Assembly (NCBI GenBank): GCA_028700115.1
Contig: JAQVTI010000021.1
Coordinates: 1-7,496 of the forward strand
Direction: 5' to 3'
DNA length: 7,496 nt
DNA from: Candidatus Iainarchaeum sp.
GTDB taxonomy: Archaea; Iainarchaeota; Iainarchaeia; Iainarchaeales; CSSED10-239
The translations under genes were made by a program, and so were the position numbers. Shown piece by piece: positions 257 to 7,496 of the stretch. Numbering within the stretch: the stretch's first letter is position 1; each line of letters starts with the position of its first letter. The notes below the pieces were generated by a model. It was given only the letters and a program-made list of their open reading frames with translations, did no database searches and was not told the DNA's origin.

Positions 257-316
257 ATGTTAAAATATTTGAATATATTTTTTGTTATTGTGTTGTTAAT
301 GCCTTTTGCTTTTGCA
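257..316 (+). other. Predicted Sec-type signal peptide of the giant protein
   Basis: MLKYLNIFFVIVLLMPFAFA followed by ELQP: short Lys-containing n-region, 12-13 residue hydrophobic core, A-x-A at -3/-1. By-eye prediction only. Confidence 0.6.
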
Positions 317-3300
317 GAACTACAACCTGTTTTTTTAGATCAAAATATACACTATTTTGGCGAAGAAATAAATTTTGGATTAGTAGGTATTATTCCCGAC
401 GATTTTAATCGTGCAGAATTTCAAATCCAATTACCTATTGGGGACAACTATCATGAAGCTACTTTGTCTTTAACTAATTTAAGTGATTATAGTTTTTCTT
501 TTCCTTTGGATTTTATATATAACGAATTGAAAATAAAATATGTATATTATAATTTTGACAATATAGAAATATTAAATCAAGAACATTTATTAAAATTAGA
601 GAAGTTGTCAATTATAGAAAATATAGGTTATTGTATTAATTCAATCTGTAATAATACTTATTTTGATGACGTGAATGCTAATGAAATTGAATTAACTACT
701 TTTCCTAAAATTAGTGATGAAAACATAAATTTTGATATATTATTAATTTTAGATGGATATATTATAGAAGAAGTAAGAAACACTAAATTACCACATTATT
801 TTGACATAAGAGCAGGAGAGTATGAAATAAAAATAACTCCTAATTATGGGGATTTAAAATTTATAACTAAGTCTTTATTTTTAAATATAATTATAATGCA
901 AGAGAATAATAATAATTTAAGAGAATATTTGAATGAAATTAAAGAACAAGACGCAGATAAAGAAACATTTGTGCTTTTAAATAACGATGAATCTCAGATT
1001 AAAGAACTAAAAACTGAGGGCGAAAAAAATAACTTTTGGATAATTGGATTAGGAATACTTGGAGGATTGATTATTTTGATTACAATATTATTTTTTAATA
1101 AACAAAAAGATAAAAACGAAAAAACAAATAGAAGAGAACTTCGTAAAAGTAGGGGTTTTTTGTTTTTCGTATTTTTTTTATTTTTAGCGTCTTTTGCTTT
1201 TGCAACACCTCTTGATGAAAAAAATGCAGAATATAATAATTTAGAAACCAAATTTAATACATTACAAGAATTATTTCCTTATCCGAAAGCATTTACAATA
1301 AGTGTTAGTAATAGCAATCCACAAAACACACAGTATTATCCAATTTTTGCAACTGGGTTGAATGACACTCAAATCCGTCCCGTTTTAAATAATAAAACCC
1401 AAAATTTGACTGCGAATTTAGAAGCAATTTATTTTTCGATAGATATAAAGAACGCAATCGAAAAATCTAAAACTAATAACAATCCTCTTTTTTTTGAGAG
1501 CGGTTGCGAACAAGTATTAGAGTGGTTTCAAGCAAATCCAATTACAGAAGATCCAAATACTTTGATTGCAAGAACGAAAGAAAATTTATTAAAGAATATA
1601 ATAATAACGGATAAAAAAAACGGATATACCGATAGAGATGTTGTATTTATTAATAATAAACTTAATGAATTAAAAAATAACAAAAAATATAATAATTCAA
1701 TAAATCCTTATGCTGATTATTGTATTTCTGAATATTTGACTAAATTAGAATCTAATCTTGGTGGGAAATATCTTGTGGAAAAAAAAATTTTATTAAAAAT
1801 AAATTATTTTGAAAAAAACACAGAAAAAATAGAAACTCAAGATGACGAAATTACAGATACTATTGTGTTTTTAAATAACAAAAATAAAGATGTTTTAGAA
1901 GGTGAATTTTTAGGTAGCGATCTTAACCATATATTTGTTGAAGTAAATTATGTTAATGATATTTTAAAAGAACAAAGTTTAGTTTTACAAGGAATACCAA
2001 CAGATAGAATTATTAGAAAAGATAATTTAATTGAAGGCAATAAAATAAGTAACTATACTATTCCTTATTTAACAGAAGGAGAAAATTTAACTATAAAATA
2101 TACGGCTCAATTAATAAATTTAGAAATAATGGATTCCGATTATGGTAGTTATTATCAATTAGAAGAGTTGCCTGTAGATTCTTCTGAAATTTATAAAAAA
2201 GGTTTTGCTTTTGTAATTCCTGATAAAAGCATAGCTGCTTTAAGAAATAAAATTATATCTAATATAGAATTAACTGGAATGGTTCGTTTAAATAATGGCA
2301 GATACGAATTAAAATGGAACCCTGAATCGTTAGCTATTCTTGCAGAAGCAAATATTAATCCTGCAAAATTTATTATTATAGATAAAAAGATAATAATTAA
2401 TATAGGTCCAGAAAATCAAAAATTAAATTTAGGTATAGATTGGGATTACGGAATAATACTTGCCGATTCTTCTGAAATTACTTTGTTACTTGAAGAAGAA
2501 AATACCATTTATTTAACACCAAACATAACTAATTTGTATTTAGAATTACTTAAAAAAACAATTATAAAAGCAACAAGCCAAAAGAATTTAGAATTAATTA
2601 GATTACAATTGCCTATTTTTTTTATATTTACATTTAAGAAAAATGCACAAACTATTAATAATGAAGACGCATTATACTTGAAAACATATGATGAAATTGC
2701 AGATTTTCTTAAAAATACAAACCTTACTCCATTAGAAAAAAACATTATATTTAATAATTTAATTTCTTTAACTGAAGATTTTTCTTTTCCAAAACAAGGG
2801 GGTGGGCTATATAAATTTAAATATAAAACAAGATTAGTCCTTAATTACGGGCTTGTTAATTATATTGATAATCCAGAAAATATAAGTAATATTAATATAG
2901 AAAATCAATCTGCAGCAATGCCTTATTTATACGATAATGCTTATTTAGAACGAAAAGGTTTTGTTGATAAAGATTTAACTAAATTTTTGATTTTAGGATA
3001 TCTAGGAGACAATTACAGGTCTTATAATCCTGAACTAAATAAAGATTCAGCATATGATTCGTATGATTCTTATGAATCAGATTTTAAATCACAAACACAA
3101 AAAATATTTGTGGACCAAAATGCGAATGAACAAAATTGGGGGTACTATAAACAATTAATATCGTATCCATTTTATAGAACTGGATTTGAACAAAAGCCAT
3201 GTTCTTATGATAAAGTTAATTTTCCCGAATATTTCTCTGAAAGTTATTGTTCTGTTGCATATAATTTTAATTCTGAAAGTGGAAATTTTGGGACATTATA

Positions 3301-6300
3301 TAATCCAAACAATCTTAATGAGGGTTGGTTAATGCAGGATTACGACTTTCAAAATAATTATACTTCTGCATATAGATCTTTATTACTTCTTGAAGATATA
3401 GATTCTTTTAAAAACAACAAACTTACATTTAATTCAAATCAACTTAAAACATTTAATAAATTAAATGCATTTCTTAGTTTGATAGAATTAGAAGCTATAA
3501 GAAAAAGAGATTCTGGTAATACTAAAAATTATGGAACGGCATTAGTTTTATCTTATAAATTACTAGAGCTTTGGAATGGAAATTATAACGCATTAAAAGA
3601 ATATGATGATTCTAACAGACTTGGACAACAAATTTCTAATATAAATGCGGCTCTTGCGTATCAAGCAACCGTTAAATTAAAAAGCATCATTGCATCAGAC
3701 AAAATTATGAGGTTAGATGCTTATAAAAATATATATGAAACAGATTTTGATAGATTTAAAGAGTCTATTGATCCATCTGCCGGATTTTTTGATCTTACAG
3801 ATTCTGCAAGATTTATGATTACTGGTAGTTGGTTTGAAACATTTATTTTTACGGGGACTAAAAAAGATGTAGAGAAATTAGAACAAAGAGATAGAGATAA
3901 ATATAATAAATTATTACACGGCGCTTGTTGTATAGCGCAAAGATTGGGAGAATTAGAAGGTGTGTCAAATTATAAGAATTGGACGGTTGCTGAAATTAAA
4001 GATAATTACAGTCCATATTCTAAAAATAATAAAATAAAAAATGATGTTATTGGTTGGGTGACTGAAAGATCTGGGTGTAGTGGGACATTAAGAGCAAATC
4101 CAGACGATTGTGCAACAGACATATTATATTTGTATAATTCAAAAGAATATGGAAAAGACCTTTCTATTATTTTAAATGATACAAAAGAAAAAAAATCTAT
4201 AACTAATTATTTAACACAACACTATAATACTAAAGGTCAAATAAATTTAGATATTGATAATGGAGTGCAACTAAGTAGTACAGAAATAGAATTAGAAAAA
4301 GATATTGCAAAATTTAAACCCGGAACAATTGGTAGTGTTTTAAAATTTATAGATGCCGGAATTAATCCCGTGGCAATAGTTCTTACAGTGGCTACTGTGG
4401 GTATAGGTCATGGACTAGCAACAGGAACAGGTGGTTTTTTTACAAGAGTTGCGGGCGGTTTTACAGCAAAATTAGGAACTTCTACAGCTGGAAGTTTAGC
4501 GAGTACTGTGGGTGCGAGAGTAGTATATGAATTGGGGGAAAATGTAGTTATAGACGGGACATACGGAGCGTTAGCTTATAAATTGCCAAATGTTGCGGGC
4601 AAACATCCATTTTTAACTTGTATATTGTTGGGTGTTGTTGCTGGAAATTTTCAAAAACCTTTAGCTAGTTTGGATAATGCTGCAAAAATAATGACTACAG
4701 ATATAATTACAAATGCTGGTTTAAAAAATGCAGACAGTATAAAAATACAAACTGCAATAAAAGAGTCGTTAAATTTAGATTATCAAGATACTGCTGAGCA
4801 ATTATTGAAATTAAAAAGCGGAGAGTCTGCAACAGATGCATTTTTTAAAAAACTACCTAAAGTCGCGGCAGGTTCTGTTGATGATGAACTTGTTAATTCC
4901 ATACAAAAAAATCTAGTGGCTCAAAAAATTTCTGTAAGTGCGGATGTTATAAAAAAAAGTTTAGAAAATAACAATATATATTTAACAACAAGAGCAACGG
5001 CAGTTTCTAAATTTAAATCAACTAAAAGTCTTATAGAAATAAATAGAATGGTTGAAGCAAATTTAGATGAATCTTCTGATAAATTTATTAAATTAGCGAC
5101 AAACCGAACAGTGCCTGAAAGACATGGAATTAAATTTGCAAATATCGTTGACGAATTTGACGATTTAAAAAGATTCAACGAAATTGACCCAGAACATTTT
5201 GCAAAACCAACAAGAATAATATACGATGATTTTGGAAATCCATTAGGTTATGAGATGGATAAAATAAACGGGTTTACTCTTGCAGATTATATTGAAGGGG
5301 GCGGCACACTAGATGATTCTTTTTATAAGAGAATAGAAGATTCTGTCGAAAAATTACATAAGCAAGGATATGCTCACGGCGATATTAATCCTAGAAATAT
5401 AATAATTACTCAAACACCAGAAGGATTAGATTTTAAAATAATAGACCCGGTTGGCTTTAGAAAGCTTGCAGACAATGTAAATTTAAGAAGCACAACAGAT
5501 ACAATAATAAATGACGACACTATAAATGTTAGAAATTTAAAGAACTATACAACTTCTGATCAAATATATTATCAAACAAATTATGTTCCAAAAAATACGG
5601 CATCTCCAGGAATTAAATCAGGCGATTATGTAGTTATAGAAAATAGTACGACTAATAAAATTGGAAAAATACAAATAACACAAGATGGCAGATATTGGAT
5701 AAATTTTTCGGATGGTTCCTCAGGGTATTATAATGAATTAGATATTATAAATATGAAAAACCTAGATAATTATAAGAAACTAGTAGATACAAGTTATATA
5801 AATACATACACTGATGATTATTTAGGTGGACCATTTTTAGAAACACCGAAAAAATTACCAGACACATTTATTTTTAAAAGTACAAATAATTTGGATGGAA
5901 GAGAAATTATTCTTGTTGATAAATTAAATGACCCTATACTAAAAAATTTTTTGTCAGATTTAAAATTAGATTTAAAAAACCTCAGCAGGAGGGATGAATT
6001 TGGTACATTTCTGGATAAAGTATCTTTGGTTAAACAAAGAGTGGATTCTGTAATGAGTCATTATCAAGATTTGGAAAACAGAACAAATTTACTAAAAAAT
6101 ATAATTAACAATAAAGATGTTTCTGGGCAAGTTGTTCCATTAGGTTATTTTATAAATAATAATATAGGGGTTTGTAGACATCGAGCATTATTATATAAAT
6201 TAGCATTAGATGAAATAGATATTAGGTCAACAATAGTAAGAGGTTGGAAAAAAATTGATGGTCTAGATGTAAGACACTCGTGGGTAGAAATAAACGATCC

Positions 6301-7189
6301 CGGAATATCTCGGATGGTAAATGTAGAAGTAGGGGATGGATTTGAGTTAGTGGAATCTTATAAGGGTGTTGGATTTAAGCAATATTTACTTCCGGATGAA
6401 ATGTATGTAGAAAACTATGTAGGAATAAGAAGTATATCAGATTTAGGTCTTGTTGCTGACGAATATTTGCTGTTATATACTCCTCCAAAAGGCGCCGTAG
6501 CCACTGGAGATGGTTTTTTGCATAATAGGAATCCATATCAACACGGTTATAGTACAACAAAGAATTTACAAACAATTGAAATAAAAATAAATAATGCATT
6601 AAAAAATAATTATAGTTTAACTACTTTAGATGACTCGGCGTTTAATAGCGATTCGATAGGATATGCACTTAGAAATATTAATTCAGAATATAGTTCGAAT
6701 GATATAACACAATTAATGATTTATCAGCATCAAAAAATTCAGGATTATATAGATGGCGATATGATATTTTCGCATATATATAAATTAGATAATCCGGTAA
6801 GTAGGAGTTATTTAACAACAGATCAGATTTTGTCTTTAAAAGAAAGAGTGGTGGCTGATTTAAAACAACAAAATATCATTATTCGTTTGGCTGAAGACGG
6901 ATCTATTCAAAAATCATATGGTGCAGGAAAATATAGTTCATTAACGATGATTTCTAGTGGCGAATCTATAATATCAATAGAAAAATCGGCATTTAACGAT
7001 ATAAGTATATTTTCAAAAGAAATGCAAAAAAATTACGCGGTGTGGAGGTTTTCAAAACTTTACGGAAGTAAAGATAAAATTCCGGTATTTTTAATCCCAA
7101 CCCCTGATGGACAGGGCGTGAAACCAATTTGGGCGACTGAGTATTATACAGACTATTATTCTAAAAATTACAACGAATTATTCAATTAA
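257..7189 (+). CDS. Giant multi-domain membrane protein (hypothetical): signal peptide, ecto modules, TM segments, kinase-like domain, SH3/Tudor-like barrel, EDR1/transglutaminase-like Cys-His domain
   Basis: Single stop-free frame 212-7189 on the ORF track. I prefer ATG 257 (2,310 codons) because it yields a canonical signal peptide MLKYLNIFFVIVLLMPFAFA|ELQ. It is preceded by GTGAG (243-247, 9 nt spacing) and TATA-like TTTAAATA (204-211), which TTG 212 would abut. TTG 212 remains possible, with AGGAAGGG at 193-200 upstream. The other five frames are shattered. Block-wise composition and catalytic-looking motifs support real coding. Confidence 0.9.
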   Translation: MLKYLNIFFVIVLLMPFAFAELQPVFLDQNIHYFGEEINFGLVGIIPDDFNRAEFQIQLPIGDNYHEATLSLTNLSDYSFSFPLDFIYNELKIKYVYYNFDNIEILNQEHLLKLEKLSIIENIGYCINSICNNTYFDDVNANEIELTTFPKISDENINFDILLILDGYIIEEVRNTKLPHYFDIRAGEYEIKITPNYGDLKFITKSLFLNIIIMQENNNNLREYLNEIKEQDADKETFVLLNNDESQIKELKTEGEKNNFWIIGLGILGGLIILITILFFNKQKDKNEKTNRRELRKSRGFLFFVFFLFLASFAFATPLDEKNAEYNNLETKFNTLQELFPYPKAFTISVSNSNPQNTQYYPIFATGLNDTQIRPVLNNKTQNLTANLEAIYFSIDIKNAIEKSKTNNNPLFFESGCEQVLEWFQANPITEDPNTLIARTKENLLKNIIITDKKNGYTDRDVVFINNKLNELKNNKKYNNSINPYADYCISEYLTKLESNLGGKYLVEKKILLKINYFEKNTEKIETQDDEITDTIVFLNNKNKDVLEGEFLGSDLNHIFVEVNYVNDILKEQSLVLQGIPTDRIIRKDNLIEGNKISNYTIPYLTEGENLTIKYTAQLINLEIMDSDYGSYYQLEELPVDSSEIYKKGFAFVIPDKSIAALRNKIISNIELTGMVRLNNGRYELKWNPESLAILAEANINPAKFIIIDKKIIINIGPENQKLNLGIDWDYGIILADSSEITLLLEEENTIYLTPNITNLYLELLKKTIIKATSQKNLELIRLQLPIFFIFTFKKNAQTINNEDALYLKTYDEIADFLKNTNLTPLEKNIIFNNLISLTEDFSFPKQGGGLYKFKYKTRLVLNYGLVNYIDNPENISNINIENQSAAMPYLYDNAYLERKGFVDKDLTKFLILGYLGDNYRSYNPELNKDSAYDSYDSYESDFKSQTQKIFVDQNANEQNWGYYKQLISYPFYRTGFEQKPCSYDKVNFPEYFSESYCSVAYNFNSESGNFGTLYNPNNLNEGWLMQDYDFQNNYTSAYRSLLLLEDIDSFKNNKLTFNSNQLKTFNKLNAFLSLIELEAIRKRDSGNTKNYGTALVLSYKLLELWNGNYNALKEYDDSNRLGQQISNINAALAYQATVKLKSIIASDKIMRLDAYKNIYETDFDRFKESIDPSAGFFDLTDSARFMITGSWFETFIFTGTKKDVEKLEQRDRDKYNKLLHGACCIAQRLGELEGVSNYKNWTVAEIKDNYSPYSKNNKIKNDVIGWVTERSGCSGTLRANPDDCATDILYLYNSKEYGKDLSIILNDTKEKKSITNYLTQHYNTKGQINLDIDNGVQLSSTEIELEKDIAKFKPGTIGSVLKFIDAGINPVAIVLTVATVGIGHGLATGTGGFFTRVAGGFTAKLGTSTAGSLASTVGARVVYELGENVVIDGTYGALAYKLPNVAGKHPFLTCILLGVVAGNFQKPLASLDNAAKIMTTDIITNAGLKNADSIKIQTAIKESLNLDYQDTAEQLLKLKSGESATDAFFKKLPKVAAGSVDDELVNSIQKNLVAQKISVSADVIKKSLENNNIYLTTRATAVSKFKSTKSLIEINRMVEANLDESSDKFIKLATNRTVPERHGIKFANIVDEFDDLKRFNEIDPEHFAKPTRIIYDDFGNPLGYEMDKINGFTLADYIEGGGTLDDSFYKRIEDSVEKLHKQGYAHGDINPRNIIITQTPEGLDFKIIDPVGFRKLADNVNLRSTTDTIINDDTINVRNLKNYTTSDQIYYQTNYVPKNTASPGIKSGDYVVIENSTTNKIGKIQITQDGRYWINFSDGSSGYYNELDIINMKNLDNYKKLVDTSYINTYTDDYLGGPFLETPKKLPDTFIFKSTNNLDGREIILVDKLNDPILKNFLSDLKLDLKNLSRRDEFGTFLDKVSLVKQRVDSVMSHYQDLENRTNLLKNIINNKDVSGQVVPLGYFINNNIGVCRHRALLYKLALDEIDIRSTIVRGWKKIDGLDVRHSWVEINDPGISRMVNVEVGDGFELVESYKGVGFKQYLLPDEMYVENYVGIRSISDLGLVADEYLLLYTPPKGAVATGDGFLHNRNPYQHGYSTTKNLQTIEIKINNALKNNYSLTTLDDSAFNSDSIGYALRNINSEYSSNDITQLMIYQHQKIQDYIDGDMIFSHIYKLDNPVSRSYLTTDQILSLKERVVADLKQQNIIIRLAEDGSIQKSYGAGKYSSLTMISSGESIISIEKSAFNDISIFSKEMQKNYAVWRFSKLYGSKDKIPVFLIPTPDGQGVKPIWATEYYTDYYSKNYNELFN
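1034..1204 (+). other. TM helix, basic loop and second signal-peptide-like helix
   Basis: FWIIGLGILGGLIILITILFF (1034-1096), NKQKDKNEKTNRRELRKSRG (1097-1156), FLFFVFFLFLASFAFA (1157-1204), then TPLD. The loop has 9 Lys/Arg in 20 residues, which fits a cytoplasmic loop under the positive-inside rule. Confidence 0.6.
4322..4651 (+). other. Gly/Ala/Val/Thr-rich hydrophobic island with at least two TM-length segments and a GxxxGxxxG motif
   Basis: GTIGSVLKFIDAGINPVAIVLTVATVGIGHGLATGTGGFF...KHPFLTCILLGVVAGNF. GIGHGLATG is at 4400-4426. There is an abrupt local rise in G+C relative to the rest of the gene. Confidence 0.55.
4976..5470 (+). other. Minimal protein-kinase-like (Bud32/RIO/Kdo-like) domain
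   Basis: Catalytic-loop-like GYAHGDINPRNIII (His 5375-5377, Asp 5381-5383, Asn 5396-5398). Metal-binding DFG-equivalent FKIIDPVGF (Asp 5444-5446). Hinge-like GYEMDKINGFTLADYI (5246-5293). Candidate beta3 Lys in AVSKF (5009-5011). No obvious Gly-rich loop or APE segment. The N boundary is uncertain. Confidence 0.55.
5897..6400 (+). other. EDR1-like / transglutaminase-like papain-fold domain with candidate Cys-His-acidic triad
   Basis: GREIILVDKLNDPILKNF ... VVPLGYFINNNIGVCRHRALLYKLALDEIDIRSTIVRG ... DVRHSWVEIND ... MVNVEVGDG. Cys 6173-6175, His 6275-6277, acidic candidates Glu 6326-6328 or Asp 6335-6337. The pattern G-x-C...(basic)V.G...H.W.E fits the transglutaminase-like core. CRHRALL[FY]K matches my memory of plant EDR1/CTR1 N-terminal domains. 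Confidence 0.6.
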
Positions 7190-7348: not shown

Positions 7349-7496
7349 TTGATTCCAAATTCTCTTGGAGCTGCTGCTGCAGGTTATGATCGTTCAATAA
7401 CAATGTTTAGTCCAGAAGGACATCTTTATCAGGTAGATTATGCCTCAAAGATTATAGAAAAAGGAAGTCCTGCTATCGGGATTATCTATAAGCAAG
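7349..7496 (+). CDS. psmA: Proteasome subunit alpha (archaeal 20S core), 5' part only; continues past window end
   Basis: Translation from TTG 7349: (M)[48 protein letters not shown]. It matches the alpha-subunit N-terminal signature YDRxITxFSPxGxLxQVEYA (Thermoplasma PsmA has ...[32 protein letters not shown]). An in-frame TGA at 7340-7342 excludes a longer N-terminus. The next ATG would delete the conserved YDR motif. GGTGA lies at 7338-7342, 6 nt upstream. It is missing from the ORF track because of the non-ATG start and truncation. Confidence 0.9.

Follow-up and report, generated by a model that had tools for sequence, protein, structure and literature searches.

A predicted minimal protein-kinase-like domain where the conserved body and the strain-swapped tail of a giant archaeal membrane protein meet

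Is a short region late in one very long archaeal reading frame a protein kinase, and if so, what could so small a kinase be doing there? The region lies in contig JAQVTI010000021.1 of Candidatus Iainarchaeum sp. (assembly GCA_028700115.1); the whole of this stretch, 7,496 nucleotides, is referred to as the window, and all features below are on its plus strand. One open reading frame, 212/257-7189, nearly fills the window and is the sole long one there. As a gene (257..7189; gene call P0003) it encodes 2,310 amino acids from the ATG at 257, with the frame open from a TTG at 212, and it has seven full-length homologues of 2,233-2,409 amino acids. A first-pass annotation had placed a minimal protein-kinase-like domain at 4976-5470, and profile searches along with structure prediction and a fold search bear this out. 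By the sequence comparisons this domain sits at the meeting point of the conserved body and the strain-swapped tail of a 2,310-residue membrane protein. Frame 1 of 4976-5470 yields every string on which the annotation had relied, namely GYAHGDINPRNIII, FKIIDPVGF, GYEMDKINGFTLADYI, DEFDDLKRFNEI...KPTRII and AVSKF, all within the giant reading frame.

We delimit the domain to 5066..5551, based on the family-wide match (profile positions ~136-297), the model and the fold search. It keeps a full catalytic set (K 5090, E 5153, D 5381, N 5396 and D 5444), and the K, E, H-G-D, N and D-P-V-G are invariant across eight orthologues. The beta3 strand KFIKL (5081..5095; model strand 25-29) carries the ATP-anchoring Lys at 5090-5092. 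Between beta3 and helix C lies a family-specific loop, R-T-x-P-x-R-x-G (5105..5128), for which alignment A5 shows conservation of 90% or more at R33, P36, R38 and G40; the family counts are 54/75 for R149, 59/75 for T150, 54/78 for P152, 63/81 for R154 and 58/83 for G156. Helix C, IVDEFDDLKRFNEI (5144..5185; model helix 46-59), holds the Glu of DEF at 5153-5155, which is found in 99/116 family domains, and beta4 (PTRIIY) and the beta5/hinge (PLGYEMD) together span 5207..5260, with model strands at 67-72 and 78-84 and an alignment to the ULK1/2 hinge. The catalytic loop HGDINPRN (5375..5398; Asp 5381-5383, Asn 5396-5398) aligns to HRDLKPQN of ULK1/2 and is invariant in the orthologues, while the DFG-equivalent metal-binding motif DPVG (5444..5455; Asp 5444-5446) follows model strands 131-136 and 139-144, with family counts of 133/151 for D, 106/130 for P and 105/130 for G. 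Two closing helices (5486..5572; model helices 160-177 and 182-188) contain a conserved Asp at 5516-5518, D170 being invariant in alignment A5, and stand-alone relatives end here. Codons were checked for the Lys, the Glu and the DPVG Asp.

Most of the motif assignments of the annotation are upheld by these results: the catalytic loop in GYAHGDINPRNIII, the DFG equivalent in FKIIDPVGF, the beta5/hinge in GYEMDKINGFTLADYI, helix C (46-59 in the model) and beta4 in DEFDDLKRFNEI...KPTRII, and the replacement of the catalytic-loop Lys of Ser/Thr kinases by Asn, as seen in HGDINPRN. The two Asp codons had also been located correctly, GAT at 5381-5383 as the D of HGD and GAC at 5444-5446 as the D of IIDPVG. 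The beta3 Lys had been sought in AVSKF (5003-5014), and this we reject, as that site precedes the domain's first helix, is modelled with low confidence and falls outside the family-wide match; the K of KFIKL takes its place, present in 8/8 orthologues and 59/68 family domains. DPVG also resembles the DPxGL motif that closes Rhs cores; since the fold evidence is for a kinase, we treat this likeness as a coincidence.

Scans with the single sequence gave weak matches, all to kinase models and all on the same hinge-to-metal-site stretch. Among the Pfam families brought up by the annotation, Kdo (PF06293) ties its cut-off of 21.3 with 21.3-21.4 bits on the isolated domain, falls to 16.9 bits on the whole protein and spans profile positions 116-165 of 207 only. 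Pkinase (PF00069) stays below its cut-off of 31.7 with 19.8 bits (range 16.5-20.3; profile positions 102-141 only), as does APH (PF01636; 12.1 bits, E 0.17, cut-off 23.2), and RIO1 (PF01163, cut-off 22 bits) gave no match for the domain of the window and at best E 0.0023 for four of the eight orthologues. NCBIfam contributed PrkT (E 7e-7), Bud32 (TIGR03724; E 1.2e-6, 23.8-28.2 bits against a cut-off of 125) and NleH (NF041316; 21.2 bits against 450), and further weak matches were obtained to RfaY and LanKC. A phmmer search of the PDB returned kinases only, with ULK2 best at 2.4e-4, and the alignment to ULK1/2 runs from the hinge over helix E into the catalytic loop. The profile built from the region in the eight orthologues (alignment A1) matched 398 distinct kinase sequences in the PDB at E<1, with ULK2 again best at 9.2e-7, and its longer alignments begin near the beta3 Lys of DAPK. 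In a library of defence systems only generic kinase-domain matches were found, the best being MkoA (E 3e-9).

The predicted structure points the same way. A first AlphaFold model of 307 residues, built from 8 sequences, reached a predicted local distance difference test (pLDDT) of 76, and its fold search returned kinases only. A second model of 194 residues, built from a shallow alignment of 13 sequences, three of them distant members found at metagenome loci, reached a pLDDT of 86.3 and a predicted template modelling score of 0.83. It runs from an N-terminal helix through beta3 KFIKL, a small hairpin, helix C, beta4 PTRIIY and beta5 PLGYEMD to helices D and E, the HGDINPRN loop, two strands, DPVG and two closing helices. 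Searched against the PDB with Foldseek, it gave 76 matches at E<=1e-3, and the best 50 are almost all kinases: NleH2 and NleH1 on top, with template modelling (TM) scores on the target of 0.52-0.56 over about 156-159 of ~160 columns, followed by ULK2, AMPK, Bud32, WbdD and OspG. The best matches in a viral library were likewise nearly all kinases. The beta3 Lys, the helix C Glu, the HxD....N loop and the DFG-type Asp are found in this order in both the model and the orthologues, and we have hardly any doubt that the domain has a protein-kinase-like fold.

The same data show how little of a kinase is present. The annotation had seen no clear Gly-rich loop, activation segment or APE motif in the sequence, and the family alignments and the model agree. 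In the model a helix, and not a beta1-beta2 hairpin, precedes beta3, and past the closing helices neither the model nor the family alignments contain any counterpart of an activation segment, of APE or of helices F-I. The domain had been described as truncated as in Bud32/RIO; the truncation stands and its extent does not, as the model lacks the beta1-beta2 hairpin and ends one to two helices past DPVG, which makes the domain more truncated than either.

Further we wanted to place the domain among its relatives. Searched against 1.84 billion representatives, the A1 profile matched 1,173 proteins at E<1e-3, of which 93 at E<1e-10, and the strong matches cover only profile positions ~136-297, a core of ~135-160 residues. 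Judged by these alignments, the domain belongs to an unannotated family with cores of about 140 residues, which is unrepresented in Pfam and NCBIfam. Many members are 155-300 residues long, begin with Met and are without a hydrophobic segment; the family also includes giants, with lengths up to 6,530 residues. In the catalytic loop the family keeps H in 196/198, G in 117/198, D in 191/198 and N in 188/195 domains, and two Pro, the hinge G-Y-x-M-E, K-x-I-D-P-V-G and a late Asp are conserved family-wide as well. Among the 68 domains whose alignment reaches across the Lys column, 52 have the complete K-E-D-N-D set.

These proteins belong to none of the curated families, and 38 relatives were matched by Pkinase (23), RIO1 (17), Kdo (17) and APH (12) in similar measure. 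Membership of Bud32, RIO or APH was considered and rejected for the domain of the window, and membership of Kdo is improbable: all cut-offs were missed except for the tie with Kdo, and it cannot be the Bud32 or RIO of the organism, as the genome encodes both elsewhere (Bud32 on contig C8, 189 amino acids, 182 bits, with a GAEA loop; RIO with 161 bits). The domain is the only copy of the family in the source genome, and the Bud32 is the only other protein there that the family model matches. Within the phylum it was found in 3 of 215 species genomes, the source genome and two of a sister genus. Other searches found few relatives: a word-indexed homologue search returned nothing with the isolated domain and 2 proteins with a 38-sequence alignment, a search of genome contigs with A1 returned 2 orthologues, and among 44 metagenome loci found with A4 only L011-L013 are true family members, the rest being ordinary kinases. 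Members were seen in metagenomes of other environments, namely P0016 (MetaClust, TARA_052 DCM, under-0.22 fraction), L012 and L013; the occurrence in an ocean fraction below 0.22 micrometres fits ultra-small cells or viruses as carriers.

Along the giant protein the kinase region has the highest identity and is its most conserved part, and directly behind it the protein changes from strain to strain. The C-terminal 430-600 residues are exchanged between otherwise near-identical genomes (window 5390-7189; L001 11187-12474 compared with L005; L006 5368-6961 compared with L004). P0003 and P0004 share 91-100% identity per 100-residue window, mostly 96-100%, from residue 1 to ~1,650; P0008 and P0010 share 90-100% up to residue 1,600 and 70% by 1,601-1,700, and P0005 and P0007 share 90-100%. 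The tails of these same pairs are only ~20-57% identical, whereas the tails of P0004 and P0008 share 80-100%, and those of P0006 and P0010 71-85% over residues 1,701-2,100 and less further on. The breakpoints lie within the kinase domain or a little past it, and P0003 and P0004 part directly behind HGDINP. In two independent assemblies the DNA is 94.5% identical until inside the gene, then cannot be aligned up to the stop codon, and is 98.7% identical from the first base past it. With flanks 94-99% identical on both sides of the tail in two independent assemblies, an assembly chimera is rejected as the cause; the tail differences are real allele replacement, and the domain marks a recombination boundary between conserved body and strain-variable tail, which is new here. 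No silent tail cassettes were found in the source genome, and no constant small gene lies downstream of the giant gene in the relatives' loci compared.

Around the kinase-like core the protein is organised as follows. A Gly/Ala-rich hydrophobic island (4361..4648), recognised by hydropathy and orthologue alignment, separates the N-terminal part, which contains Cys, from the enzymatic tail and has two clear helices with a conserved acidic middle (YELGENVVID). The middle segment, Y-E-L/F/I-G-E-N-x-x-x-D, is strictly conserved between the two Gly/Ala-rich helices. Between the island and the core comes an all-helical region conserved in the orthologues (4661..5065; helices at 2-133 of the first model, pLDDT up to 93). 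The kinase domain is followed by an SH3-like stretch and then, in the variable tail, by an EDR1/CTR1/ARMC3-type peptidase-like domain (5837..6292; Pfam PF14381, E 1.6e-10, 41.6 bits against a cut-off of 27) with conserved GVCRH, HxWVE and a later Asp. Among the relatives that are not orthologues, the best is P0011 (746 amino acids, on a Logan contig of 2,880 nt), which comprises the membrane island, the mini-kinase, two SH3-like repeats and the EDR1-type peptidase domain. Because it carries these modules without the ~1,300-residue N-terminal part, the tail of the giant protein looks like a self-contained module.

In P0011 the middle of the island has a higher hydrophobicity, a hint at three helices, and this would speak for a cytoplasmic tail. 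Several other observations do so too: stand-alone relatives have no export signal; many large relatives consist of an N-terminal signal-like segment, an ectodomain, one further hydrophobic segment and then the kinase; and 10 of the 12 Cys of the giant protein are concentrated in the N-terminal 1,285 residues, the sole Cys of the 845-residue tail being the peptidase nucleophile. The positive-inside count and the density of N-glycosylation sequons favour neither side.

Taken together, we consider it rather probable that the region is the catalytic core of an extremely compact, unannotated member of the protein-kinase-like proteins, proposed to act in cis on the cytoplasmic side. With the full residue set retained, catalytic competence for ATP is a good deal more probable than its loss; the cytoplasmic location together with action in cis on the protein itself is a more tentative part of the proposal, to which we give somewhat less than even chances. 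Mg-ATP would be bound between the Lys-Glu pair and the HGD...N/DPVG elements, and the conserved R-T-x-P-x-R-x-G loop might take over from the glycine loop in covering the phosphates. OspG is active only when it binds E2~Ub, and SteC only once it is phosphorylated (PMC13395416, PMC12756638). As there is no substrate-binding lobe, and as the minimal kinases known so far depend on a partner or on being activated, action in cis would be expected; like other minimal kinases the domain might otherwise work with a partner. The target may be the protein itself or its adjoining tail, the SH3-like barrel and the EDR1-type cysteine-peptidase-like domain, and an alternative output could be a Bud32-like, ATP-driven switch controlling the peptidase-like domain, with the cytoplasmic face of a giant, receptor-like membrane protein as the site of action in either case. 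Fusions of EDR1 domains with kinases are frequent (PMC10318531), and the pairing of kinase and EDR1 recurs in P0011; the reversed order and the other kinase type here would indicate an independent fusion and a functional link.

It should be noted that some observations count against the proposed reading. Hydropathy gives two clear island helices only, which at face value puts the tail outside the cell, and the variable part is the tail and not the N-terminal body, the reverse of what is usual for receptors. The TM-scores of the predicted model to solved kinases are moderate, 0.4-0.56, and a minority of the family is without the beta3 Lys. The motif GxGxx[GASV] occurs at most 50 residues upstream in only 2/68 family domains and three complete relatives begin at most 19 residues before the Lys, so the missing glycine-rich hairpin is a family trait; without such a loop, ATP binding would have to be unconventional.

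Among the alternatives, a Bud32-like ATPase switch fares best. Here ATP hydrolysis would drive a conformational change in the giant protein or the peptidase domain, with no substrate being phosphorylated, and Bud32 is indeed an ATPase in KEOPS (PMC11621456). The nearest equivalog model is that of Bud32 (TIGR03724, E 1.2e-6), whose genomic copy is the sole other protein caught by the family model; the HGD..N loop and the short C-lobe are Bud32-like, and the modelled domain is without a substrate-binding lobe. However, a C-lobe just as small does not keep other minimal kinases from phosphorylating proteins (PMC12756638), the score of 28 bits is far under the cut-off of 125, and hhalign against the genome's own Bud32 aligned just 54 columns at 69% probability. 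We hold such a switch to be unlikely.

Slightly less likely still, we think, is an exported effector cassette, in which mini-kinase, SH3-like barrel and EDR1-type peptidase would lie outside the cell or be delivered into the host of this presumably episymbiotic archaeon, where the kinase would act on host proteins in the manner of NleH and OspG. The closest structural matches are secreted minimal effector kinases, two clear membrane helices after an ectodomain would place the tail outside, near-identical genomes have exchanged the tail, much like conflict and effector proteins, the gene is patchy (the 3/215 genomes of the phylum), and EDR1 domains resemble C71 pseudomurein endoisopeptidases (PMC10318531). 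Against this, export signals are absent from the stand-alone relatives, and the large relatives have the layout of type I receptors, their membrane segment preceding the domain. ATP is lacking outside a cell and no delivery route is known, the tail holds a single unpaired catalytic Cys while all paired Cys are upstream, and the relatives' loci have no immunity-like gene downstream. Further, we speculate that the mini-kinase might be the junction of a swappable cassette, a 1,650-residue delivery or attachment body bearing interchangeable kinase-SH3-peptidase tails exposed to or injected into the host. This we find improbable; if true, it would be an archaeal counterpart of polymorphic-toxin/effector systems, with an NleH/OspG-shaped, glycine-loop-less kinase acting on host proteins and the conserved kinase sequence as the recombination patch.

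A catalytically dead scaffold, retained because it folds as a unit or offers recombination a stretch of homology, would agree with the missing glycine-rich loop, the position exactly at the recombination boundary and the loss of the Lys in some relatives. Pseudokinases usually lose at least one catalytic residue, whereas all five are invariant in the orthologues here and the full set is kept by 52/68 relatives aligned through the Lys column, so we regard a dead domain as quite improbable. Least probable of all is a small-molecule phosphotransferase of the Kdo/WaaP or APH kind with a sugar, lipid or metabolite substrate at the membrane, for although the Kdo model ties its cut-off on the isolated domain, HGDxxxxN is the loop form of APH, Kdo and Bud32, and Kdo and APH match 17/38 and 12/38 relatives, the Kdo match is confined to the catalytic loop up to the metal-binding Asp and drops to 16.9 bits on the whole protein, Pkinase (23/38) and RIO1 (17/38) match as often or more, and the domain ends ~35-45 residues past DPVG with no counterpart of the C-terminal helical substrate-binding subdomain that APH and Kdo kinases have.

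The genome from which the window comes is 0.96 Mb long in 47 contigs and 89% complete, and the window is one contig of it (G+C 21-33%). Its size and gene context suggest that the archaeon may be of the DPANN type. The neighbours of the giant gene vary by lineage: a metallophosphatase and SufS-NifU in L001, L002, L004 and L005, RIO1 and topoisomerase VI in L003. Archaeal neighbour genes such as MCM, topoisomerase VI and eIF were found among the relatives' loci. In the window an open frame at 7349-7496, running to the contig end, reads like the N-terminus of a proteasome alpha subunit, as far as its translation goes. The NifU-like gene downstream has intein and LAGLIDADG matches in L001 (13990-15588), L002 (12495-14099) and L005 (13994-15592), while the L004 copy is plain, with 143 amino acids. 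Within the giant gene, window 1034-1207 encodes a second signal-peptide-like unit ending in FAFA, after a membrane helix and a very basic loop, and this part looks as if two genes might have been fused; the unit is kept in the orthologue P0034 (hydrophobic segments 260-287 and 302-324).

New here are an unannotated family, a distinct motif set and a truncation more extreme than in known minimal kinases. With a core of ~140 residues and no ATP-clamping glycine-rich loop, the family would be among the smallest known kinase-fold units that keep the five catalytic residues, and a nucleotide-bound structure would reveal the minimum of the fold on which catalysis depends. Ultra-small archaea and ultra-small bacteria alike have giant proteins with such a domain; most of these giants are poorly understood in function, and a defined enzymatic module offers an experimental entry point to them, while the position at the tail boundary ties the domain to the diversification of a possible host-interaction or signalling protein.

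Compared with known systems, the compact fold is most like that of NleH1/NleH2 and OspG (PDB 4lrj, 4lrk, 4o96, 4bvu), where nearly the whole target is aligned at E 1.8e-5 to 7.6e-4 with TM 0.51-0.56. NleH and OspG have ~160-170 residues and lack Hanks subdomains VIII-XI, yet are active (PMC12756638). The likeness is structural only, as they form another sequence family (21.2 against 450 bits); they are small secreted enterobacterial proteins, whereas the domain of the window lies inside a giant archaeal membrane protein, is without a glycine-rich loop and has the motifs DPVG and R-T-x-P-x-R-x-G. With Bud32/PRPK, the KEOPS kinase/ATPase (PDB 4ww9), it has in common the HGD....N loop and a short C-lobe devoid of an activation segment, the distance from Lys to Glu is similar (21 against 23 residues), and Bud32 is, together with PrkT, the best equivalog-type match and a Foldseek match as well; unlike Bud32, the domain has neither the beta1-beta2 hairpin nor a KEOPS context. 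RIO and Kdo/WaaP likewise have a protein-kinase-like fold without activation loop, but their matches are limited to the catalytic loop through the metal-binding Asp.

Hanks-type Ser/Thr kinases (ULK1/2, PknB, DAPK, AMPK) give the best PDB sequence matches, and the Pro of their DLKPxN loop is kept in HGDINPRN; in contrast to them, subdomains I and VIII-XI are absent, HGD stands for HRD, Asn for the loop Lys and DPVG for DFG. As in the plant Raf-like kinases CTR1/EDR1, an EDR1-type (PF14381) domain and a kinase are found on one polypeptide. In the plant proteins a full-size TKL kinase follows the EDR1 domain; the giant protein has its kinase ahead of the EDR1 domain, and this kinase is minimal and of an unrelated subtype, so that the pairing of kinase and EDR1 domain probably arose independently.

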